Positions 18,843-64,000 of a DNA stretch of 64,000 nucleotides are shown piece after piece. How positions within the stretch are numbered: the first letter of the stretch is position 1; each line of letters begins with the position of its first letter. The notes beneath the pieces were generated by a model. That model made no database searches and had not been told where the DNA came from. It saw only the letters and a program-made list of their open reading frames with translations. The translations under genes were made by a program, and so were the position numbers. The stretch is taken from positions 5,988-69,987 of IMG/VR virus record IMGVR_UViG_2551306257_000001. The stretch is one strand, 5' to 3'. This DNA comes from a virus (Duplodnaviria; Caudoviricetes).

Positions 18843-18843
18843 A

Positions 18844-38581: not shown

Positions 38582-38594
38582 ACCCTCATCCTTT

Positions 38595-40544: not shown

Positions 40545-40559
40545 CTTATCCTTCCCTTC

Positions 40560-41512: not shown

Positions 41513-41540
41513 ATATCTAATTCCTTTCTCTTAATACTTC

Positions 41541-41582
41541 CATCATAAGAGATAATGACATTTCCTGCGTTAAGAGGACAAA
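41541..41582 (-). promoter_or_regulatory. 42-bp ICE promoter motif, copy 1
   Basis: TTTGTCCTCTTAACGCAGGAAATGTCATTATCTCTTATGATG. Confidence 0.85.
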
Positions 41583-41649
41583 CTGCCTAGCTGACAATCA
41601 CGATATTTGTTATATAAAAAGTTATATATCTTTATGCATAAAAAGAGCC

Positions 41650-41967
41650 TCAAAGCTGAGACTCTTTAACCATATTGAAAAATTCTTCTTCTGACAAAAT
41701 GATGATTGACTGCCCTTCTGCTATTCTAGACATAGCAGCCTCATATTTCTTGGAACGTTTATCAGGATCAAAGAGATTTAATTGCTTATGACCAGCAATA
41801 AGAATATCTGTTTGAGCCGAAATGTAATTCTGAACAACCGCCCCTCTACGCTCTAGAAAGGCAATTACGTCTTGCCTGGTCATTGGGCGTAAACTCCCTG
41901 TGATCACAATAACCTTACCCGCAACATCAAACATTGATTTACTCCTCATTTTCATCAATCTCTGCAC
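41650..41967 (-). CDS. Stand-alone BRCT-domain protein
   Basis: GKVIVITGSL..TRQDVIAFLERRGA..ISAQTDILIAG..SKKYEAA..ILSEEEF (ligase-type BRCT). Confidence 0.85.
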   Translation of the reverse strand: MQRLMKMRSKSMFDVAGKVIVITGSLRPMTRQDVIAFLERRGAVVQNYISAQTDILIAGHKQLNLFDPDKRSKKYEAAMSRIAEGQSIIILSEEEFFNMVKESQL

Positions 41968-44236
41968 CGCTGATATGCGATTGACCTTGCATGTATTGAC
42001 CTGCTTGCTGCATTTGGTGCTTCATGTAGTTCATTTGCTGCATCGATTGATCGAGACTACGTCTAGGAGGGGTTGAACCGCCAGTTGGTCGAGAGTTGTT
42101 GTGGGGATTATTTAGAAGTGGGCTATTTTCAATTGGATGAGTGCTTTTTTCAGATGAAGAAGCTGGGTCTTTAATTCCACCAGAGGAGTTACCAGATATT
42201 CCTGAGGGAGTTCCAGTTGGGTCACTGATGCCTCCAAAAGCTTCACCAGTTGGCTCTGTAGGCGGTGCCGTTGGATCTATAATACCTCCACCACTTGGAC
42301 CACTGTCGATGTTGTCAGATACTTCTGCTGACTGTATGTTTGGATCAGTAATACCTCCGTCATTCGGACTACTATCGCCATTGTCAACCGCCTGGGATTC
42401 ATAAGGAGCTTCAGGAGATAGTCCTTCACCACCGTACTGACCTGAAGGATTTAAAGTATACTCCCCATTATCATTAAAACCTGGTCGTGGCGGAACCGCA
42501 TCATTCTTCAAACCTTTGTAGACAGCATCATGAGCAGCTTGTTCTTTTTTACCTAAATTGTCCGCTATAGCACCTGTAAAGTCTTTCGCCTTACCTACTG
42601 CTTCTTTGCCCATCACATCAGCCAGGTCTACCATGTTGCTGACACCACCTTTAGCTGCATTCCAGGCTCCTTGATCCCTAGCAGCGTTGATAGCTCCTCG
42701 AATACCGCCACCTGTCGTTGCTAGACTGTTTCCAATGACTTTGCTCCCTGCTGCAAATGCGCCTGGGGCTTTCTTAGCCATATCAAGACCAAAACCACCC
42801 AATGCCATAGCACCGTTACCTACTGCACCCGCTCCAGTCGCAAAAGCGTTCCCCATCATCATCGCACCTAGCAATTGCTGTGCAGTGTCACTGTGGCCAG
42901 TAGAAACACCCAACCAACGTTCGATCATTGTCACTCCCTGCATGGCTGCCAGGAAAACGCCAATATATACCAAGGAGGCCGCTAGACACTGTTCCCACAT
43001 GTTCAGTCCATCAAAGAAACCGCCTGAAAGTTTTGTTACTGCCGAAACCGACAAAGTTGGCAAATCTCGGAAGATTTCAAGGGTTACACGCATAATCACA
43101 ACTTCAAAGAAGATACCTGCCAGTGCGCCTCCCATTGTACGTAAAAGCTCTTTATACTTCTTAGAGTTGGACAAGGAAGAGTATCCTTGGATTGGTGAAA
43201 TCATGGCTTCCACCACAATATCGAAGACCGACTTAACAAACTTGATTGACATAGAAATCAACAAAACAATCAGGATAATGTACTGCATGAACATCCCTAT
43301 CCAGTTGACCTTGTACCGCATATAGACTGGCTCAAAGGCATTTAACTGACCGACAACACGGTGTTGTGTGATAGTCTCAACACCGTCCTGATTGGCATTT
43401 AATTTATGCAAGAACAATCCCTTTATTCCTGGAAGCTTCTTTTCCAGCACCTCTAACAATCCAGAGCTAGTAGCTCCATAGGTTGCCCCAAAATCAATTC
43501 GTGTTGCAAAGTCGCTAGTATCTCGCTTATCAAGACTATCCGTAATATTATTGACGGGTGTTGAACCTTCTTTTGGTGGCTTAATGTAGCCATAATCATC
43601 TAGAGGAAAAAGCTCCGTTGAAAAGTCATTGTCAATCAGTACCTTGAGATCTACGATATTGTTCTTCATAGGCTGGATCGCCAAGGATGAATAATGCTTG
43701 CTTCCGTCCGGTGCATCGCTAGAAATCGTCTGGATATTCATCGCATCTTGGGCCATGACAGACGATATAGTCGTCAAGGCTAAAGGAAGAACTGCTGTCA
43801 CCATTGTAACTAAGAGGAAATTAGTAATCACCCCTTTATACTTGACTGGCTTTGTAAAGACTCCAGTGATAGCCGAAACAACAAGAATTAGGCTAAAGAG
43901 GCTGGTTCCGACAATTTGGAACCAAAAATAGAACTGACCTATAACCGTGTTGCTATCACCTAAGTAGCCAAATAAACCAAAGAGCTTGAACATATTGTTA
44001 AAGACATGTTCAAGGCTGGCTGTAATAGAATACAAGGCTTTGGCAATTCCACCTGGAATATAAGCTAAGAAAGATAGAAAAGCTGGAGTAGAATCCAGAT
44101 AGTTACTCCAATATTTATAAAAGGAGGCCATCTTTTCCGCATTTTCTCCTGTGATATTTCCATTTGTCGCACCATTAATATCCAAGAATCCTGTTTCTAA
44201 TGAATTGACCAGATCAGAGTAAGTATCATAAGTCAC
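41939..44236 (-). CDS. VirB6-like polytopic T4SS channel protein with a low-complexity tail
   Basis: Multiple TM helices, IERWLGV motif, G/S/P-rich C-terminus. Confidence 0.8.
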   Translation of the reverse strand: MTYDTYSDLVNSLETGFLDINGATNGNITGENAEKMASFYKYWSNYLDSTPAFLSFLAYIPGGIAKALYSITASLEHVFNNMFKLFGLFGYLGDSNTVIGQFYFWFQIVGTSLFSLILVVSAITGVFTKPVKYKGVITNFLLVTMVTAVLPLALTTISSVMAQDAMNIQTISSDAPDGSKHYSSLAIQPMKNNIVDLKVLIDNDFSTELFPLDDYGYIKPPKEGSTPVNNITDSLDKRDTSDFATRIDFGATYGATSSGLLEVLEKKLPGIKGLFLHKLNANQDGVETITQHRVVGQLNAFEPVYMRYKVNWIGMFMQYIILIVLLISMSIKFVKSVFDIVVEAMISPIQGYSSLSNSKKYKELLRTMGGALAGIFFEVVIMRVTLEIFRDLPTLSVSAVTKLSGGFFDGLNMWEQCLAASLVYIGVFLAAMQGVTMIERWLGVSTGHSDTAQQLLGAMMMGNAFATGAGAVGNGAMALGGFGLDMAKKAPGAFAAGSKVIGNSLATTGGGIRGAINAARDQGAWNAAKGGVSNMVDLADVMGKEAVGKAKDFTGAIADNLGKKEQAAHDAVYKGLKNDAVPPRPGFNDNGEYTLNPSGQYGGEGLSPEAPYESQAVDNGDSSPNDGGITDPNIQSAEVSDNIDSGPSGGGIIDPTAPPTEPTGEAFGGISDPTGTPSGISGNSSGGIKDPASSSEKSTHPIENSPLLNNPHNNSRPTGGSTPPRRSLDQSMQQMNYMKHQMQQAGQYMQGQSHISGAEIDENEE

Positions 44237-44268
44237 ATAAGGTACCTGCTTTCTCTATATGATACCCT

Positions 44269-44310
44269 CATCATAAGGGATAAATAAAATTCCTGCGTTA
44301 AGAGGACAAA
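44269..44310 (-). promoter_or_regulatory. 42-bp ICE promoter motif, copy 2
   Basis: TTTGTCCTCTTAACGCAGGAATTTTATTTATCCCTTATGATG. Confidence 0.85.
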
Positions 44311-44350
44311 TCATAGGAAAGAAAAAAAGCCTCAAATTGAGACTTTTCCT

Positions 44351-44833
44351 TTACTCAGCTTCACCTGTAAAGTCAAAATAACCATCAGAGGTATATCCAG
44401 TTTCAAACTCGAATATACGAATTGATTGTCCTTCCTCTGATAAAACAACACAGTAGAGCTGGTCGCCTAATTTCCCCCAGATATCATCTTCATGATATCC
44501 AACGTTAATAACGAAATAGTGTTCTCCCTTTAATTCTGACTCATGAGAAGCCAATATTCCTTTCATAGAGCTAGATAGTTTATCTTCAGGAACGACTTCA
44601 TAATAAACTTCTTCATCCCCTGACTTCAGTTTATGATTTTTCTTATCAAAAACGATTTCCTGTCCACCCCCAGTGAAGATTAAGCTATCATACCCTGGAA
44701 AACTTGAATAACCAACGTAGCTATCCTTTAATTCAGTTTTGACAATGTCCTCAGAGGTTTTTTGACCACAGGCTGCCAGAACAACCAGAGCGATACCAAG
44801 TACAAATAGACTTAGATAACGTTTCAACTTCAT
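44351..44833 (-). CDS. Lipoprotein (candidate entry-exclusion factor)
   Basis: Lipobox LAAC; own sigma-A promoter TTGAGC-17-TATAAT (44892-44864) and terminator. Confidence 0.75.
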   Translation of the reverse strand: MKLKRYLSLFVLGIALVVLAACGQKTSEDIVKTELKDSYVGYSSFPGYDSLIFTGGGQEIVFDKKNHKLKSGDEEVYYEVVPEDKLSSSMKGILASHESELKGEHYFVINVGYHEDDIWGKLGDQLYCVVLSEEGQSIRIFEFETGYTSDGYFDFTGEAE

Positions 44834-44919
44834 AGTGAACTCTCCTTGATATTTCTTGGCTTCATTATAACAGAAATATTATGTTCGCTCAATGGTTATA
44901 TAACTTTTTATTTACCTTG

Positions 44920-47900
44920 TTATATAACATCATCTACAAAGAAAATGTCATCTTCGTCCTCATCATCGAAAACTTCAGCAATTACAGCTTGAGTCAATTC
45001 AACTGGAGAGGTGAAACGGGCCTGACTCAATGGTTTATTCTCCTGCCTTCTCGTAGCCAATTTAGGTGTTTCTCCATTGGTCCTCATACGGTCCGTCAGA
45101 GCTATCCGCCAATCAATAATCTTACCAAAGGTACTTTGGGCCCCTACTGCAATATCCTGCAAGTCAAGCTCTCTATGGCCACTTTCTACAGGAATATCAG
45201 CCAAGGTCATCGAATGATCAAACTCTTCTTGAAGGAACATATAGCGATACGGTAGACTGGTTTTCTCGTGTAGGAAAATTGGGTCCGTTGTTATCTTGCG
45301 ACCTACATTGTCACGGCCCTTAACTCCACGTAAGATAACCGCTTCTCCTTCTTGTAGCTTGGCTAACTGTGTAGGCGTTAGAAGTTCCTGTTTTGGATTT
45401 TCAATGGCTACATTTGGATTAGCCTCATCTAGGATATTGCTTGACCGTCTCCGACGTGTGATGGTCCGAGTACCGAGGTCCTTACTAATGGAAGTGTTCG
45501 TAGTATTAGACGTTGATTTGATATAAACTGTGAGCGAACAGTTCTCCTTAATGGTTTCAGCAGTATTCTCACCGTACTTGTCAGTTAGCTGCTTGAGGTT
45601 CTGAATCCAGAGATAGTATAAGATATTTTGACCAAGACCGATTGAAATCTTGGTGTCCATATGAGGAATGGCTGGAATATTGGTGAACTCATCTAGAATA
45701 TGGAGGATGCGATTAACACATTTACGACCATTCGACAGGGCCAGCTCATAATTGGCATTAAACAGCTGATCCAGGAACAGAGATACAATACTGTTGTATT
45801 CTGTTCGGTTTGGCGGTGTGACCAGGTAAATCACTTTTGGATTATCTGAATACACAAACTCAATATCCTCTTCCTGGAGAAGACTGTCTGCTTGCTTATC
45901 TAGGATGGAGACTTTGATATAATCCAATATTGGTTTCTTCGTATACTCGTCCAGAGCAACTACCTTACCAAGTTTCTTATAAACTTTTTCAGCTGAAAAT
46001 TGGAAGGTGCTATCACGAATAATAGAGTCACCATTGTTCTCATGATCAAAATCGATCGTTACTACAAACTTATCAGGAAGTTTTGGCTCAATCACATAGG
46101 TTAGATAGCCCTCTCCATCGATAAGAGCCGTAGCTGCGTTTACGTGAACAACTTGTCTAGTTGATTTGCCCCAAGCTGTTTGACTGATAATCGTAACCTT
46201 GGCCGTCTTGTGGGCGTATTCGTTACGCATAGCGACATTAGAGCTTGATCGGAACTTAATCGACAGGCGACGTGGGAAACCAACCGATTCCAAGTCAATA
46301 GAATTTTTAGACGTGAGCTTGGCAATATTGTCTTGTAAGAAGAGGTTGATTCCAGACATCATACTGGAGAAGACGTTCCCCTTGGTCTCTTCAGAGGCAA
46401 AATCTGAGGACCTGAAGTTCAAGTCTGCCATATCTCTAAACTTAGAAAACTGTTCCTGGTTAATCTTACGTAAGTTATCAAAGTAAACTGTTATTTTTGA
46501 TTTCTTCTTAACTGGCTGATCACGGTCTGGATTCTCAACGATTTCTCCAAAGTCATTAACAAATACTTCTTCTGAACCCAAATCAGTTAGAAACTTGGCA
46601 ATGTTACGAACAGTGACCGTGTCCCAAGCATCCGTTTCTCCATTCTTAAAGGTTTCATTAGCACGATCAATTAAAGCCATAGCAATCGCATTGAAGAGGG
46701 AAATAGATGTATCTTCCCAGTATTTTGCGTTACCATTGCCAACACCTGGTTTTGTTTTACGATAGATTGCTTCAGCGACTGCATTTACCCTTGTCTGAGT
46801 CATTTCATAGTAGCCCTTCTTTGCAGCTGCAATTGCTAGAGCTAGAGGGTTATAAGACATTGACCAGTCCATATTCTGGAAAGATAGGACATTGACATCA
46901 TAACCACGTCGACGCATGGTTTTGTAAGAGGATTGATAATGCTCACCTTTCGGATCAGCCAAGACCATAGACGGCTGTATCTCAGCCCGACTATTAATAT
47001 CAATTGTTGTCGTGATATGCCCCTCACCTTTACCTGAACGAGTCATACCAATACCCAGCATGTTTGTTGTGCTGTCTTCTATATAGTAGTCCCCTGAAGG
47101 TTTGGAATAGATCCCTAGTATTCTTTCTGCGTTCGTCAGATAACGGCTAAACGTACGATTTTGCCAGAGCATTTGAGAACCTAGAGTTAGTCCTGATAGG
47201 CTCTTCCTTGTTTCGTGGAGAACAGGAACCCCTCCTTCACCTGGATAGATTTCTGTCTTGTTTGGGACCTTCTTATATTGTTGGTGGATTTCCTTGACTG
47301 TCGCAAAGCGATCATCACCTTCTTCATTGTGGTTATAGTCTCGATACTGCTCAAAGTTTACCCAAGCTGATCGCCAAGCTATCACCAAACTAACCAGAAA
47401 GATAGGCACTGCCAGAATTGGAGCAATCACAAATACCCTAGCATTGAATAGGTTTTGAATTAACAAGCTATCGATGTCAAAGCTATCTACTAGGCTACTA
47501 TCTCGCAAACTCATGACCGAGAAATAAAGAAAACGAATTGCTGCCCTTAATACAGTCACAAAATAGTTTGTGATAATAAAGGCTATGAAGCTAAACCCTA
47601 TCCCCATAAGCACAAAGCTACGAACATTTTTGAAATATAGCAGAGGCTTCATTTCTTTGTCGAAACGCTTCCTGTCTGGTTGAACAAAGGGCAGTTTGTA
47701 GATGAGCCGAAAAAGAATATTCCCCAGGAGCAGGAACAAGAATGAGGGAACAATTGTTGCACATCGTTTAAAATATCGCCAGGTTTTCTTCCCTATTTCT
47801 TTTCCAGCTGAGCCCCAGTCAACCTCACGTCGATGTCTCCAGGGATGTAGTAGCGCTTCCTTTTTGTCCATGAAGTATTGTTTTATGATATCTTTATCAT

Positions 47901-48078
47901 CTATAAAGCCTTTCATCACCTGAAGAAAGTCATGCAATGGCTTCCTGATAGTCCTAACCCCCTGGTAACAAAGATAGCTGACAAAACTGACTATGAGTAT
48001 TGCATTAAAGGGATTAATCTTTGCAAGCTGGACCAGAGTGTAATAAATCGCTTCTAGCCAACTAAACACGTTGCTCAC
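44920..48078 (-). CDS. VirD4-like type IV coupling protein
   Basis: N-terminal TMs, GMTRSGKG, ADPKGE, YNPL, ILDEFTN, IQNLKQL..YG. Confidence 0.93.
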   Translation of the reverse strand: MSNVFSWLEAIYYTLVQLAKINPFNAILIVSFVSYLCYQGVRTIRKPLHDFLQVMKGFIDDKDIIKQYFMDKKEALLHPWRHRREVDWGSAGKEIGKKTWRYFKRCATIVPSFLFLLLGNILFRLIYKLPFVQPDRKRFDKEMKPLLYFKNVRSFVLMGIGFSFIAFIITNYFVTVLRAAIRFLYFSVMSLRDSSLVDSFDIDSLLIQNLFNARVFVIAPILAVPIFLVSLVIAWRSAWVNFEQYRDYNHNEEGDDRFATVKEIHQQYKKVPNKTEIYPGEGGVPVLHETRKSLSGLTLGSQMLWQNRTFSRYLTNAERILGIYSKPSGDYYIEDSTTNMLGIGMTRSGKGEGHITTTIDINSRAEIQPSMVLADPKGEHYQSSYKTMRRRGYDVNVLSFQNMDWSMSYNPLALAIAAAKKGYYEMTQTRVNAVAEAIYRKTKPGVGNGNAKYWEDTSISLFNAIAMALIDRANETFKNGETDAWDTVTVRNIAKFLTDLGSEEVFVNDFGEIVENPDRDQPVKKKSKITVYFDNLRKINQEQFSKFRDMADLNFRSSDFASEETKGNVFSSMMSGINLFLQDNIAKLTSKNSIDLESVGFPRRLSIKFRSSSNVAMRNEYAHKTAKVTIISQTAWGKSTRQVVHVNAATALIDGEGYLTYVIEPKLPDKFVVTIDFDHENNGDSIIRDSTFQFSAEKVYKKLGKVVALDEYTKKPILDYIKVSILDKQADSLLQEEDIEFVYSDNPKVIYLVTPPNRTEYNSIVSLFLDQLFNANYELALSNGRKCVNRILHILDEFTNIPAIPHMDTKISIGLGQNILYYLWIQNLKQLTDKYGENTAETIKENCSLTVYIKSTSNTTNTSISKDLGTRTITRRRRSSNILDEANPNVAIENPKQELLTPTQLAKLQEGEAVILRGVKGRDNVGRKITTDPIFLHEKTSLPYRYMFLQEEFDHSMTLADIPVESGHRELDLQDIAVGAQSTFGKIIDWRIALTDRMRTNGETPKLATRRQENKPLSQARFTSPVELTQAVIAEVFDDEDEDDIFFVDDVI

Positions 48079-48319
48079 CTCGCATATCTTCTAAAAAGCG
48101 TTTGATTTTCTCACCATAAAGCGTAGAGAAAAGGAAAATTTTGAATTTCTGCTGAGAGGAAGCTAGCTGGTAACGCTCCAGATAGGAGCTAACACCTGCT
48201 TCGATGCCCAATTGAACAGTATATAGATGGCATGTTCTACCTTGCTTCAGGAAATTTTCTATTTGAAGTGAATCAGCCATCAGATCATCTGATTGATATT
48301 CTACTTGTTGCTTCATCAT
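48062..48319 (-). CDS. Hypothetical protein preceding virD4
   Basis: Start behind AAAGGA, downstream of motif copy 3. Confidence 0.6.
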   Translation of the reverse strand: MMKQQVEYQSDDLMADSLQIENFLKQGRTCHLYTVQLGIEAGVSSYLERYQLASSQQKFKIFLFSTLYGEKIKRFLEDMRGEQRV

Positions 48320-48354
48320 AAGCAACCATCCTTTCTTATATTTTTGCACACTCT

Positions 48355-48396
48355 TAGTCTAAGGGATATTAGCCTTTTCTGCGTTAAGGGGACAAG
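48355..48396 (-). promoter_or_regulatory. 42-bp ICE promoter motif, copy 3
   Basis: CTTGTCCCCTTAACGCAGAAAAGGCTAATATCCCTTAGACTA. Confidence 0.8.
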
Positions 48397-48485
48397 TAGA
48401 AACTATATATAAACAGCGGTTTCAGGACCCTGATTAAAACAAAAATAGCACGTGAGTGGTTTATCTCACATGCTACTTTGTTAGT

Positions 48486-48908
48486 TTAGAAGGGTTCTCC
48501 TGAATCAAATGGTTCTGGATAGTCAGTAGGCGGTGGCGGTGGAACCTGCATTCCCTGTCTACGTCTGTTGGCTACATCCTTAGTCTCCAGAAAAGTGATC
48601 CCTCGATTCTGGTCTGGGGAAATATATTGATAGTATCGACGTTGGCCTTGACTATCTTGATAAGGCCGTTGGATAATTTCTCCCTTTACCAGGATAGGAG
48701 AACCTTTTACAAGACTTTGAGCCATCACTTCAGCTTGTTTGCCATATATCTGAACATGAAAATAACTTGGTATTGGTTTTCCTTGTTCATCTTGTAGACT
48801 TGAATCACAAACAAACTCGAATTTGAAGCTGGCATTTCCTTTAGAAGTTCTGCCGACAGCATCATCTGGAATGCTCGCTACTCTTCCGTCAGCAATAAAA
48901 GTTTGCAT
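48486..48908 (-). CDS. ssb: Single-stranded DNA-binding protein
   Basis: OB-fold YGKQAE..KGSPILVKGEI..Y.D..GQRRY; acidic tail ending in PF. Confidence 0.88.
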   Translation of the reverse strand: MQTFIADGRVASIPDDAVGRTSKGNASFKFEFVCDSSLQDEQGKPIPSYFHVQIYGKQAEVMAQSLVKGSPILVKGEIIQRPYQDSQGQRRYYQYISPDQNRGITFLETKDVANRRRQGMQVPPPPPTDYPEPFDSGEPF

Positions 48909-48922
48909 CTCTTCTCCTCCTC

Positions 48923-49486
48923 TTACTTGATACGATAATTGGCTTTGGCATGGTGTACCGTTGGCTCCTCCGAACTGGAATCTGCAACAGTCAATCCTTC
49001 TGGAGAAGCTACTTCGCTTTCCTCTACTGTCCCAGCTCCCCGGCCATCGTCATTCAACCAGTCCATCACATTGCCATAACGTTTGATAGCATCATACTCC
49101 GCTATCAAAAACTCTGTCTTAACGTATGGCTGCAAAGCTTTAATGCTTCCAAGCTCCACCTCGGTAAAGAGTGCCGCCTTCGCCACGTCGGCCGTGACAG
49201 TATACACAACTTCGCCTGATAATGGATTATTATTTGTGGTTGCAGTGATAAAGCCTTTTTCCTGCAAAGGAGCCAATACATTGATTAAATAATGGCCCGT
49301 GTCAATGACCCAATCATCTGCCATGACTGCCTTCACAAACTCTTCTCGGTCATAATCACTCTGAAAAGTCAGTTCTGTATTTGCTCTGGCAATGGCATCC
49401 ATTTTGACAGCATAGCTTTTCAGCTCAAGATGTGCCAAAAATCTAGCTTGTTCCTTGGTAATAACTGCTTTTTGCTGTTCTGTCAT
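48923..49486 (-). CDS. Hypothetical protein
   Basis: 187 aa ORF inside the operon. Confidence 0.65.
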   Translation of the reverse strand: MTEQQKAVITKEQARFLAHLELKSYAVKMDAIARANTELTFQSDYDREEFVKAVMADDWVIDTGHYLINVLAPLQEKGFITATTNNNPLSGEVVYTVTADVAKAALFTEVELGSIKALQPYVKTEFLIAEYDAIKRYGNVMDWLNDDGRGAGTVEESEVASPEGLTVADSSSEEPTVHHAKANYRIK

Positions 49487-49489
49487 TTC

Positions 49490-50128: not shown

Positions 50129-50131
50129 TGA

Positions 50132-52696: not shown

Positions 52697-52708
52697 TTTA
52701 TCACCTAT

Positions 52709-53065: not shown

Positions 53066-53230
53066 TAAAGCGCCCCCCTTTCACCGTTGCTATTATTTAC
53101 CCTACACTTTTTCTAGGTCAATATTATTATACACTATAAAATCTGCAAAGTCAATGGTTTTTATTTTTTTTATCATTGACTTTTGCAAAAATCCAAGTCC
53201 TGTAAGAACCTGGATTTTTGCAATTAAAGA

Positions 53231-56200: not shown

Positions 56201-57607
56201 GGGATCGTTTTGGAAATTAACTAAGATTTTATCTTTATTATCAAGTTCTGTTGATTTTAAAGTGTAAGTATACACAACTTTAGAAATTTCTGTTCCGTCG
56301 AAAGAAGAATTTTTAAGACCTGTGTAGGTAACAGAAATTGGTTCTCCTTTTTTCAAGATATAAACAGGACCATTCCCAGAATCGTCTCGAAACTGGTCAA
56401 TATAACGTCCATTGACAATCGTAGCAATTTCAGAATCTGTTGCCGCTTCTACAGATGAAATATAGCTAGCATCGGGTTCTGATTTAAAAATCAAATGTTG
56501 CACCACAAATTCGCTCAAAAATCCGTCTTTCCCCGTATTCGCCAGCATGTCTGCCAACTTTTTCTGATATTCTGCTTGCAAGCGATCGTTTTCTGCTTTT
56601 GCTTCTGCTGCAGCGGCATCGTTACGTTTTTGGATTTCATCATTCTCAGCTAGCAAGTCATTGTACTCTTTTAGATCCTTGTCATACTCTGCCTTTAATT
56701 CTGCATTTTTGGCATCAGCTTCAGCTTGGCCCTTGGCGTTAGCTTCTTCGTTAGCTTTTTTACGTTCGTTATAGCCAGCCATTGCTGCTTCATCAGCTGC
56801 GATGATGGTTTCTTTGTTAGCTTCCCATTCTGCAAGGGCGTTAGCATTACGTTCATCAACGGCTTTTTGACCCAACTTATTTCGTTGGACTGTCGCCGCT
56901 TGACCAGCCTTATTGCGTTCCTCAACTGCTAACTTTTCTGCTTCAATATCATCCAGTTTCACCTGATTGCGTTTATCAACTGCTTCTTGACCTGCTTTGT
57001 TACGTGCCTCTACTGCTTCCTGGCCAGCTTTGTTCCGCTGGTCTGTTGCTTCTTGACCTTGTTTATTGGCTTCTTCAACACGTTTTGCCTCTGCTGCATT
57101 GTCTGCATCGATTTGATCATTCGTAGCATTTGCGGCTGCGATTTCTTCGTTGTTTTCAACCTTTTCGGCTTCTGCATTTTTTACAGCTGCTTCCTGATTG
57201 GCAGTATCATTTTGAGCGGCTTCAAGGCTATCATGGACCGCTATTTCACCCTTGGTCACAACTACACCGTTTGCCTCTGCCTCTGCAACTGCTCGATCAA
57301 GCGCTGGTGTTTCAACAGGTGTTACAATTGCCCCAGTATTTGTATTGGCATGGGCTTGAAGGTCTGTATTTTCAACTGGTGTAGCTGGCTGAACTTCAAC
57401 CAGGTTAGTAGCTGGATTATCCGTTGTGACCACTGTCTCCGTCGCAACTGATGTCGTTACTTCATCTGCTGATACGGTATTAGCGCCAGCAACAGTAAGG
57501 GCACCTGCAAGAGCTATTGTTGATACGAGACCGTAAGCCTTCGTGGTTACCAAACGCTGCCGCGCTTGAGTTTCTGCCGATTTTTTAAAAAGTTCTTTTC
57601 TATTCAT
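53231..57607 (-). CDS. Antigen I/II-family adhesin with MucBP-like inserts, LPxTG-anchored
   Basis: Ala-rich repeats, GbpC-like V domain, Pro-rich repeats, C-terminal domains, LPSTG. Confidence 0.9.
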   Translation of the reverse strand: MNRKELFKKSAETQARQRLVTTKAYGLVSTIALAGALTVAGANTVSADEVTTSVATETVVTTDNPATNLVEVQPATPVENTDLQAHANTNTGAIVTPVETPALDRAVAEAEANGVVVTKGEIAVHDSLEAAQNDTANQEAAVKNAEAEKVENNEEIAAANATNDQIDADNAAEAKRVEEANKQGQEATDQRNKAGQEAVEARNKAGQEAVDKRNQVKLDDIEAEKLAVEERNKAGQAATVQRNKLGQKAVDERNANALAEWEANKETIIAADEAAMAGYNERKKANEEANAKGQAEADAKNAELKAEYDKDLKEYNDLLAENDEIQKRNDAAAAEAKAENDRLQAEYQKKLADMLANTGKDGFLSEFVVQHLIFKSEPDASYISSVEAATDSEIATIVNGRYIDQFRDDSGNGPVYILKKGEPISVTYTGLKNSSFDGTEISKVVYTYTLKSTELDNKDKILVNFQNDPTKTLYYWIDGQETVINMDVKFYDATDKILNTSGSLLSFASLNTAIVDLDYEAISNFIGEFIEITGSGIKVIDGVARAIASNRYTEEGSKFFEAEWDYDGSPLEYYGAIVGRTTSETINFDISSKGRNYVWFAFNTNVKAPTVTPPPPLKEVTPEKLKPVPATPPKLETVTFNPTPFNEEPPAPSKIPNEPTFETFTPEVFTPETYTPTPYTPEVFVPETFTPEVYNPITPVVKPHVPVPEVKTIKTTVHPVAVKDAPAITKDVVNTEGTSINGELVAKNSTETWVLNPGALKAGREAMTSVVLSDPFPAGTKIVKDDTAKLSPEWLVSYDETGKAIVTLSANGLAKVNADLAKDFVLPTFNAIFTVLNDAATYKNAYTMTLTTKSGKTYTATSNTPVIYTPGSETRTYNGNVVVRYFDVDTNVKIAPNQADLEDAKVGTAYDTTDQKQEVIAHEGKLYKLTSKVVGSETGKVTDGTIYVDYFYKVVENEPGKGNVVIHYVNEDEKTVANDVVDSSNVPTGTSYDTTDYKPGRITTEDGIEYELVPEKTIGQETGEVIEGTTEVTYVYKRITPRPETPTPNDSLIEPEKHLYQVGQISGANLDGLQLLPNKTYSYTAVTDNNQYKGLKATQGEIFKGFLPLVDDPQDNTVLFDFSTLKTTLADGRDVSSDFEVRSYESLEKADAEVVAILKAARISPDGYFSVVVPKGLDFEGYFNKYVFTGLNLFHTFDVKTGDYIGDFSNKVWQVDFGNGYAGNTVENNVPKLDGIKKILESIGSNKDLTGGTIELGQTYPARLSFPVVKTTIDGKLKSLYGIENFDENFDEYNGEFYAFASGDMKLKDGSIIKLDEELTRYIVQELIRDEKTGQVVAVKYTVNPEFYDLLAEGEEIKIDVYSMLKRIAYGENIENEWIVYVNDVEVDKDIVTTNTPKPKEETPEVPETPVTPGTPVARAQTLPSTGEESSMALAALGASMAIAGLGLARRKRDSEVD

Positions 57608-57633
57608 ACCTTAAATCTCATCCTTTTCTGATT

Positions 57634-58449
57634 TTACAAGTAAATGTAGCGTGATTCTGACGTATTATTTTTACCAGAAATAGTAAATCCAAATAGTAGG
57701 AGTAAAAATCCTAGTAAGGTTAGCGCTATATTTTCAACCACCCCTGTTTCTGGCAAGGTTTCCTTCTTCCCTTCTTTCGTAATGAAAGAAACGGTTCCGT
57801 TTTGATTAGTTACGCCACCAAAGTCTTCAGCTTTCCCTGTCGACTTTGTACCATCGACGTTAGCAATCGTAACAACACTATTCTCTGTGCTGATAACAGT
57901 GTACCCCTGATCCGTTACGATTGGTTCAAAATCTTCTTCAACCGTAGGAGCTGGATCTACTTGAGGCTGTAATGGTGCCGTTTGAGTGTTGTTATTTTCG
58001 GTTGTTTGTGGCGTAGTCGGTGTTGTAGGCTGGCTGTCAATTCCAACTGTCGTTGCTGGTTCTGTTGTGTTTGGTTGCTCACTTGGAGGAACAACGGTAG
58101 AGTCAGTTGGTGTCTCAGTCGTCCCTGGGGTAGTTGGAGTTTCTGACTCCTTTGGTGCTTCAGGCGTTTCTGTTGTCTCACCAGAAGTTTCCGCTGGCAA
58201 TGTCGGTTCGACTGGAATTTCTTCCGTCGTATTCATTGGTGTCATTGGAACAGTTGAATCAGTTGGAACAGGGGTAACTGGATCAGTTGGCAGTGCCACA
58301 ACTTCCGTTGCAGAAGTTTCTAAAGCGGTGTTCTCTGCATATGCAGGCTGACCATAGGTTAAGACCGCCCCCGTTGCCAACCCAAATACTACGGTTAGCT
58401 TCAGTGTGTTATTTTCATCATATAAGTCCTTGGTTCTCATATGTTGCAT
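57634..58449 (-). CDS. Pro/Thr-rich LPxTG surface protein
   Basis: Signal peptide, P/T/E-rich stalk, LPETG plus TM. Confidence 0.82.
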   Translation of the reverse strand: MQHMRTKDLYDENNTLKLTVVFGLATGAVLTYGQPAYAENTALETSATEVVALPTDPVTPVPTDSTVPMTPMNTTEEIPVEPTLPAETSGETTETPEAPKESETPTTPGTTETPTDSTVVPPSEQPNTTEPATTVGIDSQPTTPTTPQTTENNNTQTAPLQPQVDPAPTVEEDFEPIVTDQGYTVISTENSVVTIANVDGTKSTGKAEDFGGVTNQNGTVSFITKEGKKETLPETGVVENIALTLLGFLLLLFGFTISGKNNTSESRYIYL

Positions 58450-58461
58450 TTCCTTTCATTT

Positions 58462-59547
58462 TTATTTAAGATAACTGGTTTCCATTGGCTCTGTGGTCAC
58501 CACAAAACCGTATTTACTAGATTCCGAGACTTTGACCGTGAAACTAAGGCGTAGACTTGTGGTCTTCTCCTCCTGCTTGACGGCAAGAACATAGGTAACT
58601 TGATATTCCTTAGCATCTGAATCATAAGTCATCTGCTCCAGAATCACCGATTGCAGCGTTCCTATTTTTGGGACAGTATACTTTGCATCTCCATCAGACA
58701 GAAAATCCACCAGGTTTTCTTTTTGACCAGAATAATAATTTGGTAAAAAGTAGCGACTGAAGACATCTACTTGATGCTCCGTACTTACTAAGTGCTGGGT
58801 ATGCTTTAATTCTTGATAGAGATAAGCAACCTGTTCATTCTGCTTGGCCAGTTGCGTATATGCAATGATAGATGAAGCTATCCCTCCGAGAGCCAATACT
58901 CCAATAAGTCCCATGAGTAGGTACACCTTCTTCAGGGATTGTGTTTTAGGAGCTTGATGAGGGGCTGTTGGAGTTGCATTCATTGAAACGCTCAAGACTG
59001 GGCTCGGTTGATAGGATTTACCCAGCACCTGTTCCCCTTCCTCTGGAAAAAGTGGCAGGGCTGACTCTGGGATTCCCAGACTAGCTTTGTAAGATGGGTA
59101 AATCTGGTTGATGAAATACTCACGTTTTTCCTGATAAGTGTAATGTCGGAAATCTAGTCCAGTCATAATTGACTGAATCAGTGGTAAGAGCAAATTCTGG
59201 TACCTTTGATCAATGATAAATGGACTAGCATAGACTTCCCCTTCAGAGACAGCCTCTTTTCCTTCTAGGTGGCAAATAGCCACTTTTTTCAGCCGAAACT
59301 GACCGTAAGCCTCTTTTAAGGCTTGAAATAGCCGTTCTGCTTGCTGGAAGGTTATATAAGGCAGAGACTCTTCGATGGCATGCTGGAAATAATCTAGATA
59401 CTGTTGATCCAGTCCTTCGATAATGCCGAGAAGCTCACCATCATCATCTGGAGATTTTCCATCTTCCCATGTCACCTCAAGAAATAGGTCATCTGTCACC
59501 AAGCATTTATTGCTTTTCTTAAAAGGTATAAATGCCATCGTAACCAC
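58462..59547 (-). CDS. VirB8/TcpC-like conjugation protein
   Basis: Central TM; C-terminal VDVFSRYFLPNYYS..YQVTYVL (NTF2-like). Confidence 0.7.
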   Translation of the reverse strand: MVTMAFIPFKKSNKCLVTDDLFLEVTWEDGKSPDDDGELLGIIEGLDQQYLDYFQHAIEESLPYITFQQAERLFQALKEAYGQFRLKKVAICHLEGKEAVSEGEVYASPFIIDQRYQNLLLPLIQSIMTGLDFRHYTYQEKREYFINQIYPSYKASLGIPESALPLFPEEGEQVLGKSYQPSPVLSVSMNATPTAPHQAPKTQSLKKVYLLMGLIGVLALGGIASSIIAYTQLAKQNEQVAYLYQELKHTQHLVSTEHQVDVFSRYFLPNYYSGQKENLVDFLSDGDAKYTVPKIGTLQSVILEQMTYDSDAKEYQVTYVLAVKQEEKTTSLRLSFTVKVSESSKYGFVVTTEPMETSYLK

Positions 59548-59548
59548 C

Positions 59549-59896
59549 TTACCCTTTCACAAAGGTGAAAAGCCACTCAACAATACTTGGCCCAGCAGAA
59601 ACAGCAACAATGGCCACTGCAATAGCTACCCAGTGCTTCTTAATACCTGCTTTAAGATCACGACCACCGAAACCATAAATTAGACCAGTTACCACAACAG
59701 CCAAACCCAAAGTTACAATGCCAAGTCCCTGAACTTTAGTAATCCCCTGTTTTGCTAGTTCATCTGTTTTGGTGAAAGGATCATCTGCATAGACGGTATT
59801 TGTCAAGATGCCTGATAGAAAGAGTGATAGACTGAGCAAGTAGTTCCTGCCTTTGGTCTTCACTTCACCGAAATAATTTGTCAATGTGTCCTTCAT
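59549..59896 (-). CDS. VirB2/TrbC-like pilin
   Basis: Signal ending VYA-D, two hydrophobic helices; start behind AGGAGG. Confidence 0.7.
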   Translation of the reverse strand: MKDTLTNYFGEVKTKGRNYLLSLSLFLSGILTNTVYADDPFTKTDELAKQGITKVQGLGIVTLGLAVVVTGLIYGFGGRDLKAGIKKHWVAIAVAIVAVSAGPSIVEWLFTFVKG

Positions 59897-59926
59897 AGAA
59901 GCCCTCCTTATTTTTATTGACATGAT

Positions 59927-59968
59927 TAGTGTAAGGGATAAATAACATTCCTGCGTTAAGAGGACAAA
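59927..59968 (-). promoter_or_regulatory. 42-bp ICE promoter motif, copy 4
   Basis: TTTGTCCTCTTAACGCAGGAATGTTATTTATCCCTTACACTA. Confidence 0.85.
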
Positions 59969-59986
59969 TCGCAGGAAAAATATTTT

Positions 59987-61819
59987 TCAGCTGAAGAGAG
60001 AATCCATTTCTCCTTCAATATCTAGTTTGATCTGCCTCAAGTCTTTGCGGTGTTGGCCATCTGGTGCCTCCCCTTCCACCCATAAATGAACATTGTAAGT
60101 TTGTTTACTCCTATCCAACAATAGAATCTTAGCCGAGATCGGCGGCAATACTTTTTGTTTAATCAAATGCTCTAAGGGCCGTGCACCATTCTTTACATCG
60201 GTTCCCACGTCCGACAGATACTGAATCAAACTTGGTTCATAAGAGAGCGTTACATTTTGTTGGCTCAACCTAGCTTCAATCTCAGATAAATTTTTCTCTG
60301 CGATTTCTTCAATAACATCACGCTCCAGGAGATTAAAGATGAGTTTATTTTCAATCCGATTCAAAAACTCTGGTCTAAATTCATTTTGAAGCTCGCTGAC
60401 CATAGATTTCTCAAACTGAAGCCACTCACGATCGGATAAATTTTTGAAATTGCCTTTTAATTCCCACTTATTGATAATTTTCTTATCACCACTATTTGTG
60501 GTCATAATGACAATTGTGTTTTTGAAGCTAACCAGACGACCTGTACTGTCTGTCAAGCGCCCATCAGCAAGCACCTGGAGAAATAGGTCTATGACTTCAC
60601 CGTGCGCTTTTTCAAGCTCATCCAGTAGCAAAACACAATAAGGTTTCTGCTTGACTCCTTCCGTCAGCTGCCCTTTTGTTTTCGTAGCACGATTTCCGAT
60701 TAGTTTGGCCACATCTTCTTTCTGTTTATACTCAGACATATCAAAACGAATCATGGCATCTTCATCATCAAAAAGTGCTTCTGCCAAGGCTTTGGCTAAC
60801 TCTGTCTTCCCAACTCCAGTCGCACCAAGGAAGAGGAACGAGGAGATTGGTCTGTTTTCATCTTGTAAGCCTGCTTGAGCAATGGTCACAGCATCAACAA
60901 TTGCATCAATCGCTTCTTCCTGACCCTTGACTCGTCTCATCAATTTTTCCTTGAGACCATCTAGCCGCTCCTGGTCTCCTTTTAAAATTGTCGTAACAGG
61001 AATACCAGCTTTATCCTTCAAGACTTGGGCTATATCTACTTCTGTTACACTCTCTTTTCCTTCAACTGAAGCAATAGTTGCTGCTTCATCGATCAAATCA
61101 AAGGCTTTATCTGGTAAAAAACGATCTGTAATATAGCGAACAGACAAACGGACTGCTTGTCGAACTGCTTCTGAAGAAATTTTTAGCCCATGAAATGTTT
61201 CATAAACGCCTTTTGCCTGTTCGATAATCGCTATCGCTTGCGGAATTGTCGGTTCCTCTACCATAACTGGCTGGACCCGACGTTCCAATGCTCTATCTGT
61301 TTCGATATAGTCATGGAACTCATCTAAGGTAGTTGCACCGACCAACTGAATGTCGCCACGTGCCAAGACTGGCTTGATAACATTTCCTGCATCAAGAGCC
61401 TGACCGTCTTGGCCACCTGCACCAACAATAGTATGAAATTCATCTACAAAGAGGAGATTCTGTCCTCGTGTAGCAACCATCTCCTCAATGATTTTCTTGA
61501 ACTTGGCTATGAAGCCACCATCTTCTTCACTCATTAAGCTAGACAGTTCCAAAGAGCGTACCGTTAAACCCTTTAAGGCAGATGGAACCTGACCACGCAA
61601 GATAGCAAGAGTTAAGCCTTCGACAATAGCTGTCTTCCCGACTCCAGCCTCTCCAACTAAGACAGGATTGTTTTTCGTTCGCCTGAGAAGGGAAACGATG
61701 ACGGCCTGAACCTCTTTATCTCGTCCATAAACCTGGTAATCAGCCACCTTCTTTGAGACTTTGTCTGACAAATTGTCAGTGTACTTATCAAGATAGGGTG
61801 TCTTCACTTCGTCTTCCAC
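59987..61819 (-). CDS. ClpA/B-like double AAA+ ATPase lacking the N-terminal domain
   Basis: GEAGVGKT / FVDEFH and GATGVGKT / LLDELEKAH; FRPEFLNR; GARPL. Confidence 0.93.
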   Translation of the reverse strand: MEDEVKTPYLDKYTDNLSDKVSKKVADYQVYGRDKEVQAVIVSLLRRTKNNPVLVGEAGVGKTAIVEGLTLAILRGQVPSALKGLTVRSLELSSLMSEEDGGFIAKFKKIIEEMVATRGQNLLFVDEFHTIVGAGGQDGQALDAGNVIKPVLARGDIQLVGATTLDEFHDYIETDRALERRVQPVMVEEPTIPQAIAIIEQAKGVYETFHGLKISSEAVRQAVRLSVRYITDRFLPDKAFDLIDEAATIASVEGKESVTEVDIAQVLKDKAGIPVTTILKGDQERLDGLKEKLMRRVKGQEEAIDAIVDAVTIAQAGLQDENRPISSFLFLGATGVGKTELAKALAEALFDDEDAMIRFDMSEYKQKEDVAKLIGNRATKTKGQLTEGVKQKPYCVLLLDELEKAHGEVIDLFLQVLADGRLTDSTGRLVSFKNTIVIMTTNSGDKKIINKWELKGNFKNLSDREWLQFEKSMVSELQNEFRPEFLNRIENKLIFNLLERDVIEEIAEKNLSEIEARLSQQNVTLSYEPSLIQYLSDVGTDVKNGARPLEHLIKQKVLPPISAKILLLDRSKQTYNVHLWVEGEAPDGQHRKDLRQIKLDIEGEMDSLFS

Positions 61820-61820
61820 T

Positions 61821-63569
61821 TCAATCTCTCCTTTCTTTTGCGGCCAAAATTTGATGCGTTAATTTTTCCTTGATAGCATCCACAAATTCACGTGGGTTTA
61901 TCTCTCCTTCTCCAATTTGAGATAGAAACGTTTCCCATCCGCCTGTTGTTTCAGGACTGGCAAACTCATTATCATAGAGGTAATGAATCAAGAGGTAAGC
62001 CTGATTCGTTGGGAATAATTGCCCTGTCTTCTTGTCCTTTTTGATATAACCTCGATCTTGAATGGTTTTCAACATGGTTGCCCTAGTTGCCTGTGTACCT
62101 AAGCCGTACTTGGGTAGGATTTCACTAATCAATTGGCTTTCTGTAATCCTCTTTGGTGGCTTTGTCACTCCCTCAAGGATATTGACCTTTGTCTCAAACT
62201 GATCTCCTATACGATAATCTGGTAGCTCTACATCCCCTTTTAGTTTTTGCTGGCTAAGATCGGCCCAACCTGGGTCAATCATTTGACGGCCTTTTGTTTT
62301 GAAAACCATCCCCTGGTTTTCCACTTCAACCGTCGTTGTTAGATAGCGACAATCAGCAGCAAACATCAGAAGGGTTCTGCGAACAACAGCTTCATAGATT
62401 AGCCTTTCTTCTGGCTTCAGGGTTACTAGGTTCGGGATATTCTCAGTTGGAATAAGAGCATAGTGACTTGTTTTGGCTACTTTCTTAGGATTAACATAAT
62501 CTTCCCTTGGTTCCATATTTACTGGTTCAAAAGGACAATTAATCGCCTCTTGATAACTCTTCAGGTAATTTCTTAAATAGCTAAACTCTTCCTCATCGAT
62601 ATATCGAGTATCTGTTCTAGGATAAGATAAGTATTTTTTCAAATAGAGACTTTCTATTATGCTTTCTGTTTTAGTTGGTTCAAATCCCCACTGTCTAGCC
62701 GCTAATCCCTGAATATCGGATAGATTAAATAGATGTGGTGCTGCTCTCTGTTTCTCTTCTGTTTCAACTGAAGAAACGGTAGAAACTGTGCTTAGTTCTC
62801 GTGACGTTGTAAGGATAAGTTCACTATCCGAGTACTTATCCTTATTTGTGAAACTGATCTCCGTTTCCTTATCTTGCAATTGTAATTTCCAATAGGTTTC
62901 TGGCTGGAAATTTTGAATCGCTATATCGTTCTCACAGATTAGCCGTACTCCAGGAGTTTGAACACGGCCGACAGACAAACTATTTCCCTTCCCTTTTGGA
63001 AGTCGCCCCTTACTTTGTAATTCTAAAGTAACTAGAGGAGACAAATTCATGCCTACTAGCCAATCTGACTGTGCACGTGCTTCAGCTTCCAGATAGTAGT
63101 TATAGGTTTCCATAGGTTCTCTTAAATTTTGAAAGGCTTTCTGAAGGCCTCGTATAGTCAACGAGTTGGTCCATAGGCGCTTAGTTACTTTATCTTTCCC
63201 TTCTGGAATGTGGGACAAGATTGAATAGGCAATCCGCTCCCCTTCCCTATCAGAGTCTGTACCGATAATCACCTGACTCGCTGCTGTTACTTCCTGATAG
63301 ATCTGTTTGAAAGTATCTTTAGATATTTTGTCCTGCTTTAAGGTCTGCTTAAAGGAAACATCGACCAATGGTAGTTTATCCAAATCCCAGTTATCCTTGG
63401 GTAGCCCATATTCAAACAAATGCCCCTCTGCTGCAATGATATGCACCTCATCTGAAAAATAGGGTGTTTGTTTAATAATGTGTACCTTTCCTTTTTTACT
63501 AGCCTTGCCCAAACACTCTGCATAAGCCACTGCCTGTGTTTCTTTCTCAGCTAGAATCACTGTTACCAT
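61821..63569 (-). CDS. Type IA DNA topoisomerase (TopB-like)
   Basis: ILAEK, GTDSDREGE, SVGRVQTP, SYPRTD, HYALIPT, GLGTQATRA. Confidence 0.94.
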   Translation of the reverse strand: MVTVILAEKETQAVAYAECLGKASKKGKVHIIKQTPYFSDEVHIIAAEGHLFEYGLPKDNWDLDKLPLVDVSFKQTLKQDKISKDTFKQIYQEVTAASQVIIGTDSDREGERIAYSILSHIPEGKDKVTKRLWTNSLTIRGLQKAFQNLREPMETYNYYLEAEARAQSDWLVGMNLSPLVTLELQSKGRLPKGKGNSLSVGRVQTPGVRLICENDIAIQNFQPETYWKLQLQDKETEISFTNKDKYSDSELILTTSRELSTVSTVSSVETEEKQRAAPHLFNLSDIQGLAARQWGFEPTKTESIIESLYLKKYLSYPRTDTRYIDEEEFSYLRNYLKSYQEAINCPFEPVNMEPREDYVNPKKVAKTSHYALIPTENIPNLVTLKPEERLIYEAVVRRTLLMFAADCRYLTTTVEVENQGMVFKTKGRQMIDPGWADLSQQKLKGDVELPDYRIGDQFETKVNILEGVTKPPKRITESQLISEILPKYGLGTQATRATMLKTIQDRGYIKKDKKTGQLFPTNQAYLLIHYLYDNEFASPETTGGWETFLSQIGEGEINPREFVDAIKEKLTHQILAAKERRD

Positions 63570-63596
63570 ATCTTATCTCCTCTCTCTTGATAGCTT

Positions 63597-63638
63597 CATC
63601 ATAAGAGATAATGATAATTTGTGCGTTAAGAGGACACT
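63597..63638 (-). promoter_or_regulatory. 42-bp ICE promoter motif, copy 5
   Basis: AGTGTCCTCTTAACGCACAAATTATCATTATCTCTTATGATG. Confidence 0.85.
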
Positions 63639-63700
63639 TAATTCTTTTTATTAAAAACAACATAAATTGTTATATAACTTTTTACGCTATTTCTTATATA

Positions 63701-63734
63701 CAATCAGGCACCCTCGAAAGAGAGTGCCTGATTG
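63701..63734. terminator. Hairpin terminator
   Basis: CAATCAGGCAC...GTGCCTGATTG. Confidence 0.7.
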
Positions 63735-63735
63735 A

Positions 63736-63930: not shown

Positions 63931-64000
63931 GACAATATGTAAAGACCCCCAGTTGAGAATTCGTGGATTTACCTGTACACTAGAATAAAAAAAACAATCA

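Follow-up and report, generated by a model that had tools for sequence, protein, structure and literature searches.

A fixed-geometry sequence module precedes every transfer operon of a streptococcal TnGBS-type integrative and conjugative element and points to an element-specific regulon

How does a conjugative element switch on its mating apparatus when the genes for it are divided among several operons? The question is raised by a 64,000-base stretch of DNA (the window), which comprises bases 5988–69987 of the 69,987-base record IMGVR_UViG_2551306257_000001, filed as viral. From ~33,300 to 64000, where the end of the window truncates it, this stretch carries the right-hand part of an integrative and conjugative element (ICE) of the TnGBS type. 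Elements of this type are widespread in pathogenic and commensal streptococci, and the portions of the TnGBS literature available to us cover transposition, replication, and classification, with nothing seen there on the switching of transfer genes. An earlier interpretation made from the letters alone (the sequence-only reading) had proposed that five copies of a 42-bp motif define an ICE-specific transfer regulon, turned on by a dedicated activator or alternative sigma factor. Here, we report that the motif is the core of a longer module with fixed geometry, present once before each transfer operon and absent from the maintenance genes.

With the 10-base spacer given in the sequence-only reading, the motif had no match in the window, even when 3 mismatches were allowed. 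With one base more, TGTCCYCTTAACGCA-N11-TATCYCTTA had five sites without a mismatch, each on the minus strand (41546–41580, 44274–44308, 48360–48394, 59932–59966, and 63602–63636). Each fell inside one of the five 42-bp intervals reported before, so that the coordinates hold and the spacer alone was off by one base. In 100 dinucleotide-preserving shuffles, the same pattern had 0 matches. The short core CYCTTAACGCA, with 2 mismatches, occurred at chance frequency (24 observed vs. 24.3 expected), and the signal therefore resides in the full bipartite module. As had been described, all five copies are intergenic, each 28–36 nt ahead of the start codon with which a co-oriented string of genes opens, and profile matches agree with the labels given to these strings (virB3/B4, virB6, virD4, pilin/adhesin, and topoisomerase/Clp). 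The modules, here called P1 to P5, and the genes that follow them are:

41533..41585, minus strand: P1 module; motif position 1 at 41580, TAnnnT hexamer at 41547–41542, predicted start at ~41535
36370–41512, minus strand: P1 string; 101-aa membrane protein (first gene), 215-aa protein, VirB4 (649 aa), 96-aa protein, CHAP-glucosaminidase (445 aa), 195-aa protein
44261..44313, minus strand: P2 module; position 1 at 44308, predicted start at ~44263
41650–44236, minus strand: P2 string; 765-aa pLS20_p028-family membrane protein (GTG start at 44236) and 105-aa BRCT-domain protein
48347..48399, minus strand: P3 module; position 1 at 48394, predicted start at ~48349
44920–48349, minus strand: P3 string; 95-aa open reading frame (ORF) and 1052-aa VirD4 coupling protein
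59919..59971, minus strand: P4 module; position 1 at 59966, predicted start at ~59921
48486–59896, minus strand: P4 string; TrbC/VirB2-like, TcpC-like, LPXTG, and antigen I/II adhesin genes, and others down to SSB
63589..63641, minus strand: P5 module; position 1 at 63636, predicted start at ~63591
61821–63569 and 59987–61819, minus strand: P5 string; topoisomerase and ClpB-like AAA protein, respectively

The transfer genes form seven operons; the five copies would serve as promoters for five of these, and the other two operons lie beyond the window end. In relatives, the remaining operons consist of a 91-aa gene with small proteins, a nuclease, and the MobL relaxase, and of an 85-aa gene with a 1792-aa primase/polyvalent protein. 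There is one motif copy per transfer operon and none at the maintenance genes, for which the sequence-only reading had rightly noted ordinary sigma-A promoters. That of parA (36306–36278, minus strand) reads TTGACA-17-TAAAAT, and that of the lipoprotein gene (gene at 44351–44833, promoter at 44892–44864, minus strand) reads TTGAGC-17-TATAAT with a TG. Terminator-like hairpins stand upstream of P2 (44350–44322) and P3 (48479–48442), and hairpins are also visible upstream of P1 and P5, while P4 follows immediately on the stop of the ClpB-like gene, and no hairpin separates the two.

The anatomy of the module was derived from a logo of 71 unique sites, in which position 1 is the T of TGTCC. The 11-bp spacer is present in 71/71 sites by construction of the search, which covered this spacing alone. 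The conserved span amounts to ~53 bp (TGAyTTGTCCnCTTAAyGCA-N11-TATCYCT-TAnnnT-N5-T-R) and is thus wider than the searched pattern. Upstream, TGA occupies positions −4 to −2 in 57, 48, and 57 of the 71 sites, respectively, and T is found at position 0 in 67, though that position was outside the search pattern. Conservation continues through A11, y12, and G13 (G13 in 65/71), A19 (65/71), A25 (66/71), and T26 (68/71). Likewise outside the search pattern, T39 is present in 71/71, hence all 71 sites contain TAnnnT. Purines follow at 40–41, then T45 (65/71) and a purine at 46 (69/71). This T/purine step at 45/46, 7 nt past the TAnnnT hexamer (34–39), is the likely transcription start; the leader predicted from it measures 22–28 nt at most sites, with a median of 24.5, among the 60 of 71 sites where both a ribosome site and a start codon could be located.

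The hexamer itself reads TACACT in 21 sites, TATGAT in 20, TAGACT in 11, and TATACT in nine, plus seven rarer forms. In the window, it is TATGAT three times and TAGACT and TACACT once each, in agreement with the −10 hexamers originally listed. Set in the TAnnnT register, TTGTCCnCTTA covers −46 to −36 and TATCYCT covers −19 to −13, and the −35 window reads AyGCAr, which is not sigma-A-like (the sequence-only reading gave ACGCA(G/C) for this position). When 44100–64000 was scanned at 9 of 12 matches to the sigma-70 consensus, 0 of the 4 motif copies in that range passed; the scan did accept the lipoprotein promoter and another at 53154. T at −12, A at −11, and T at −7 are seen in 71/71 sites, with no usable −35 in this register, as in activator-dependent promoters; the bipartite build with fixed spacing, unlike the housekeeping consensus, which marks alternative-sigma promoters, is seen as well. 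Internal dyads, MerR-type spacing, and the CiaR, WalR, CodY, AdcR, and CtsR boxes were compared with the module by eye and rejected.

The module is confined to these elements. A scan for the exact pattern, with one genome per species, returned 18 stretches, all from Streptococcus (S. suis, S. hyointestinalis, S. orisratti, S. oralis, Streptococcus sp. LysM4, and a metagenome-assembled genome). Five motif-bearing genomes were then searched in full with 3 mismatches allowed and the reversed pattern as control. There were 7 copies in G001, whose element is nearly identical to that of the window, 7 in G002 plus 1 elsewhere, 7 in G003, 7 in G004 (6 + 1 on two contigs), and 5 in G005. The copies were clustered and co-oriented in all five genomes, and the reversed control gave 0. 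Over 401 Streptococcus genomes, a looser pattern (TGTCCNCTTANNNCA-N11-TATCYCTTA, 1 mismatch) matched in 15, always clustered and within TnGBS-type elements or remnants; eight of these genomes had exactly 7 copies and the others had 5, 4, 4, 3, 3, 2, and 1. A backwards control pattern matched in 0 of the 401. Outside these elements and remnants, no motif was found in the genomes searched. The complete chromosome G277 carries the window's own element, with the five window copies and two more, all in the ICE and within 35 kb. Finally, nine distinct complete elements were assembled from retrieved stretches; in every one of them, the gene strand bears exactly 7 copies and the opposite strand 0. Taken as sequence evidence, these data strongly support an element-specific transfer regulon defined by one fixed-geometry module. 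Of the original proposal, the regulon thus stands on the number of copies, their positions, and their confinement, while the dedicated factor is plausible, neither an activator gene nor a sigma gene having been found.

A reduced relative of ~10 kb was observed in G002 (locus L074, G002:C1:1707001-1723000). Its one motif copy (8035, minus strand) precedes a p028-like gene and is the same sequence variant as that of the full ICE resident in the same genome. The reduced element keeps a gene of a 164-aa family described below, the replication initiator, small relaxosome-like genes, and the transposase, and has neither relaxase nor secretion ATPases. As a candidate satellite, it would share the promoter of the full ICE.

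Variation among the sites has two parts. In 63 sites (9 elements × 7 ranked promoters), column-wise mutual information with 2000 shuffles separated columns that follow the element and not the promoter (−3, −1, 6, 7, 11, 12, 16, 18, 19, 20, and 22; p ≤ 0.0025) from those that follow promoter rank and not the element (36–38, 40–44, and 46–50; p ≤ 0.001). Mean differences in the upstream half were 6.48 between different promoters of the same element and 8.05 between the same promoter in different elements; in the downstream half, the corresponding values were 7.78 and 4.55. The upstream/downstream split came out the same when a near-duplicate element was included. The column test and the mean differences together indicate that the copies of one element share a uniform upstream half and that each operon inherits a downstream half of its own, a split that fits a factor-binding half joined to an operon-specific core.

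We infer that the module acts as a promoter starting at the T/purine step, that the factor reading it is encoded by the element, and that control is positive. In the mechanism that we propose, the upstream part (TGAyTTGTCCnCTTAAyGCA and an A/T-rich spacer, −50 to −26) would replace the −35 box and dock one trans-acting protein of the element, and the downstream part (TATCYCT, a sigma-A-style −10 of the form T-A-N3-T, and the T/purine start) would be tuned per operon. The docked protein would draw the host sigma-A RNA polymerase to promoters too weak alone, with the outcome that the entire mating apparatus would be turned on together. We regard this recruitment of sigma-A polymerase to poor promoters by an element-encoded protein as evenly poised between right and wrong.

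Several observations weigh against it. Within a single element, there are copies that agree base for base over 30 positions, and gene conversion among copies could be an alternative cause of the element-wise uniformity, since the spacer columns are homogenised too. The module can also be read in another register, TTGTCC (0–5)-N18-cATTAT (24–29), with 8/12 sigma-A matches and a pyrimidine/purine step at 36/37, so that it could be a weak sigma-A promoter with operators. In addition, TGTCCnCTTA and TATCY-CTTA resemble an imperfect direct repeat, and its second box lies over the −10, where repressors typically bind. On the side of the factor, Pfam, NCBIfam, and PHROGs profiles run on the ICE ORFs scanned revealed no regulator, Pfam in particular no helix-turn-helix (HTH) or sigma domain, and in a six-frame search of G277 with Sigma70_r2 (PF04542) and r4_2 (PF08281) at E ≤ 10, the ICE was free of matches. 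A search for RNA runs containing 41300–48500 returned none. Of 44100–64000, four RNA runs that carry the same species label covered only short conserved bits of the Clp-like gene and 63927–63992; such limited coverage indicates that those strains are without the element, and the runs are evidence neither way.

Taken up as an explanation in its own right, the other register would make the seven operons repressed sigma-A promoters, silent until induction, with TTGTCC as −35, cATTAT as −10, an 18-bp spacer, and the remaining invariant bases (CTTA..GCA in the spacer and CYCTTA over the start) as operators for a single repressor that the element encodes. Control by repression is common, in pLS20, ICEBs1, and RK2 and in many Gram-positive conjugative elements, and this register has A at −11 in 66/71 sites and T at −7 in 71/71 (a base fixed by the search pattern). 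It also accounts for the T at position 0, kept in 67/71 despite being outside the search pattern; the direct repeat brackets its −10, and the element-linked columns 6–22 all lie within its spacer. We nevertheless consider it somewhat unlikely, given that its 8/12 matches fail the 9-of-12 scan when the element's maintenance promoters are near-consensus, that there is no T at −12, and that an 18-bp spacer is suboptimal. It further leaves unexplained the invariant T34, A35, and T39 around the promoter-variable 36–38, which is the pattern of a working −10, and a repressor gene was likewise not found. An element-encoded sigma-like factor that replaces sigma-A, and takes TGTCCnCTTA as extended −35 and TATCYCTTAnnnT as extended −10, appears improbable. 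The two conserved blocks, which keep a fixed distance, lack a dyad, and reach from −46 to −7, do look more like the footprint of a holoenzyme than like an operator, the middle of the −10, where the fifth base is C in 46/71, is unusual for sigma-A, and 3 of 10 distant homologues of the 164-aa protein have sub-threshold HTH matches, including Sigma70_r4_2 at E = 0.011. Against these stand the lack of any Sigma70_r2 or r4_2 match in the ICE at E ≤ 10, a model of the 164-aa protein without significant fold match in the PDB (best E = 5.4), its rank of sixth of 36 in covariation, and the combination of T−12, A−11, and T−7, which is a hallmark of the housekeeping sigma. Least of all can we credit a streptococcal regulator or sigma factor of the host reading sites that the element merely carries, which is highly improbable. 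That no regulator of the element can be named, and that the elements are confined to Streptococcus among the genomes searched, would suit a host factor; yet the motif was not seen outside elements and remnants in those genomes, and the upstream half is uniform within an element and differs between elements of related hosts. The sole non-housekeeping sigma found in G277, which resembles the extracytoplasmic function (ECF) type and lies outside the ICE, was found with that query in 2 of the 5 other motif-bearing genomes, and no sequence like the competence cin-box was apparent.

If an element-encoded protein recruits sigma-A polymerase, the best lead for it, though a weak one, is the 164-aa protein, encoded by the first left-end gene and present in all 9 elements and in the reduced relative. 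A C-terminal stretch of this family resembles an HTH, and the sub-threshold matches in its distant homologues fall at ~93–137 (HTH_Tnp_1, E = 3e-4; HTH_23; and the Sigma70_r4_2 match given above). Its 84 close homologues, often labelled 'modification methylase Sau96I', are from Streptococcus wherever the source is named. A profile of the family against 1.84 billion proteins gathered 41 representatives, none fused to another domain. Neither PDB sequences (no match at E < 0.3) nor the ESM Atlas (no named relative) connected it to a known protein, and for its AlphaFold model (predicted local distance difference test, pLDDT, 76) the best PDB fold match, not significant, was the Trp repressor. Among 6 left-end families in 8 elements, the 164-aa family alone correlated with the upstream-half variant (r = 0.42, p = 0.027 uncorrected). 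Over 36 universal families in 9 elements, nearly all correlated (mean r = 0.67), and the covariation test is therefore not specific.

At the left end of the ICE (locus L034 of G277, 7700-7830, and 8 other elements), the first ORF and its ribosome site begin within ~30 bp of the end, so close that the promoter must be outside the element or be formed across the circle junction. In G277, the first small left-end ORF is cut down to 14 codons. The 164-aa HTH-like protein is one candidate for a factor that redirects polymerase, and transcripts of its gene may arise only by crossing the circle junction. A wider version of this idea, which we think plainly unlikely, is that a protein family showing neither a sigma nor an activator domain redirects host RNA polymerase to the 53-bp composite promoter while the factor-binding half evolves in concert per element; each TnGBS lineage would then own a private, insulated regulon that satellites could tap.

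Other proteins were considered along with it. A 148-aa family was rejected as the factor: its model (pLDDT 80) had the PriA N-terminal domain as best fold match, not significant at E = 0.27, and on this modelling the family more likely belongs to replication. PHROGs profiles on 10 unknown ORFs gave nothing useful, a DUF2786/DUF7168 protein matching phrog_421, of unassigned function; the titles and opening lines of abstracts on DUF2786 indicate no work on its function. Small proteins with a ribbon-helix-helix look, judged by eye, are encoded in the relaxase operon and after ParA.

Master factors that act on one box repeated near the −35 of the transfer operons are known from the SXT/R391 ICEs (SetCD) and the IncC plasmids (AcaCD), where satellites share the box. 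The likeness that the sequence-only reading drew to these systems is one of logic only, a single factor and a single repeated box. SetCD and AcaCD are Gram-negative activators of the FlhDC type, whereas general Pfam scans of the ICE ORFs showed no FlhC/FlhD-like family, no search having been aimed at FlhDC models; the TnGBS module is also longer than their boxes, runs through the −10 region, and has no dyad. In pLS20, a single sigma-A promoter (Pc) under the Rco repressor drives one very long operon, with Rap/Phr and antitermination as further layers. By its profile matches, the transfer machinery of the ICE is a pLS20-like type IV secretion system: the 765-aa P2 protein, the VirB6 analogue, belongs to the pLS20_p028 family (E = 3e-97), the relaxase is MobL (E = 1e-52), VirB4 is ~28% identical to the copies on Bacillus subtilis plasmids, and small ribbon-helix-helix-like proteins (by eye) come before the relaxase. 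Unlike in pLS20, the TnGBS transfer genes are divided among seven units, and a copy of one non-consensus promoter stands before each. Phage Mu Mor/C and T4 MotA offer promoter sets with a −10, no −35, and a conserved box near −40; these belong to phages, their activators are known, and their boxes are shorter, while the TnGBS module adds an invariant TATCYCT at −19 to −13. For a transfer-gene specificity factor supplied by the element itself, there are parallels in the sigma factor of Tn1549-family ICEs, Tn916 Orf7, and pBS32 SigN, from which this TnGBS-type ICE differs in having no detectable sigma domain. A sigma factor is listed among the conserved genes of the Tn1549 family in PMC4701971, and PMC7826253 describes SGI1 as hijacking the activator complex AcaCD.

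In the searchable full-text literature, no description of the module was found; earlier mention in the TnGBS family papers (Guerillot 2013, Brochet 2009) or in supplements is possible. The available portions of PMC3942029, PMC5812530, PMC4701971, and PMC7168690 do not mention it, and the S. agalactiae start-site paper (PMC4448216) contains no occurrence of 'TnGBS', 'ICE', or 'conjugative'. A single cis module before all seven transfer operons defines a regulon, predicts transcription starts, and can serve as bait for the regulator; being shared, it points to a single element-encoded mating switch. Its two-part evolution suggests lineage-specific control and a route by which reduced elements hitch a ride. 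As a Gram-positive conjugative transfer system split into many co-regulated units in place of one long operon, this ICE is a rare example.

A second motif, the palindrome AAAAGTTATATAACTTTT, occurs in 5 copies in the window, against 0.13 expected:

36251–36268: palindromic box flanking the parA promoter
36320–36337: palindromic box flanking the parA promoter on the other side
41617–41634: palindromic box that begins 52 bp upstream of the P1 start
44891–44908: palindromic box directly next to the −35 of the lipoprotein promoter
63665–63682: palindromic box that begins 44 bp upstream of the P5 start

In relatives, the palindrome occupies the same kinds of place and is also found before P3. The distance between its start and the module start varies (33–57 bp). 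It is probably, from these positions, an operator or centromere of a partition-linked protein that would act on both promoter classes. With its operators scattered over maintenance and transfer promoters, this motif, and not the module, resembles KorA/KorB of RK2 and omega of pSM19035. As a guess, the binder may be the 90-aa protein encoded after ParA. No description of the palindrome was found in the searchable papers.

The surroundings agree with a TnGBS-type element. The family is defined by a DDE transposase in place of an integrase (PMC4701971) and inserts 15–17 bp upstream of the −35 of sigma-A promoters (PMC3942029, PMC4701971). In the window, the ICE ends a few tens of bases past the stop of such a transposase, before the TTGCAC-17-TATAAT promoter of rpmG-secE-nusG, a position that would fit the family expectation. 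The family trait of plasmid-type replication and partition is represented by ParA and, in the left part of relatives, by a 503-aa initiator with a PriCT_1 domain. The ICE genes present in the window include a CHAP/glucosaminidase hydrolase, the 649-aa VirB4-type ATPase, the 765-aa pLS20_p028-family membrane protein, the VirD4 coupling protein, SSB, LPXTG proteins including the antigen I/II adhesin, TcpC-like and TrbC/VirB2-like proteins, the ClpB-like ATPase, and the topoisomerase. On the other side lies a prophage-like region, which is probably why the record was filed as viral. The features not listed so far are:

1 to ~31,700: prophage-like region, with an Abi_2 protein at 29016–29969 and an integrase at 30636–31706
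33350–34678, minus strand: DDE transposase (UPF0236/ISLre2 type; PF06782, E = 2.7e-21) at the right ICE end
35126–35398: 90-aa protein after ParA, with a ribbon-helix-helix look by eye
35398–36216, minus strand: parA, downstream of its TTGACA-17-TAAAAT promoter

A search of 33000–64000 against Rfam at E ≤ 1 returned nothing relevant. Inside the P4 string, a near-consensus sigma-A promoter (TTGACT-17-TATAAT, 53126–53154) precedes a 118-aa gene, and the distal surface-protein genes may thus be expressed independently too. At 63927–63992, the RNA reads mentioned above match a 65-base piece whose flanks are unrelated; as these strains are free of the element, the piece would be a short conserved segment shared with something else there.

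A conserved stretch of ~45 nt, AAACCCGCAAACTGCCATTACATTTATATCTCTGATAMT, was observed just past the replication initiator gene in 9/9 elements (L034, ~4440-4500, in G277). It reads cTGcCA-16-gATAAT, has TATCTCT and a −10 in common with the transfer module, and is possibly the promoter of the next operon. Farther afield, a TnGBS-like element of Ligilactobacillus salivarius (L078, CP104730.1 39558-81495), whose VirB4 is 54% identical, is without the motif and has a repeated element of ~230 nt in every inter-operon gap, which belongs to no Rfam family at gathering score. These repeats stand, in the coordinates of that locus, in the following gaps:

near 5900–6179: ~230-nt repeat
near 13400–13764: ~230-nt repeat
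near 14400–14663: ~230-nt repeat
near 16090–16338: ~230-nt repeat
near 17400–17650: ~230-nt repeat
near 18600–18850: ~230-nt repeat

Judged by its placement, this repeat could be a leader RNA or a cis element with an analogous role. Lastly, in G277 (L034, 7027-7200), the reading frame of a 105-aa ORF stays open on the upstream side and runs into a Cys-rich stretch, with no standard start codon there, and its homologue in G003 is 147 aa long.

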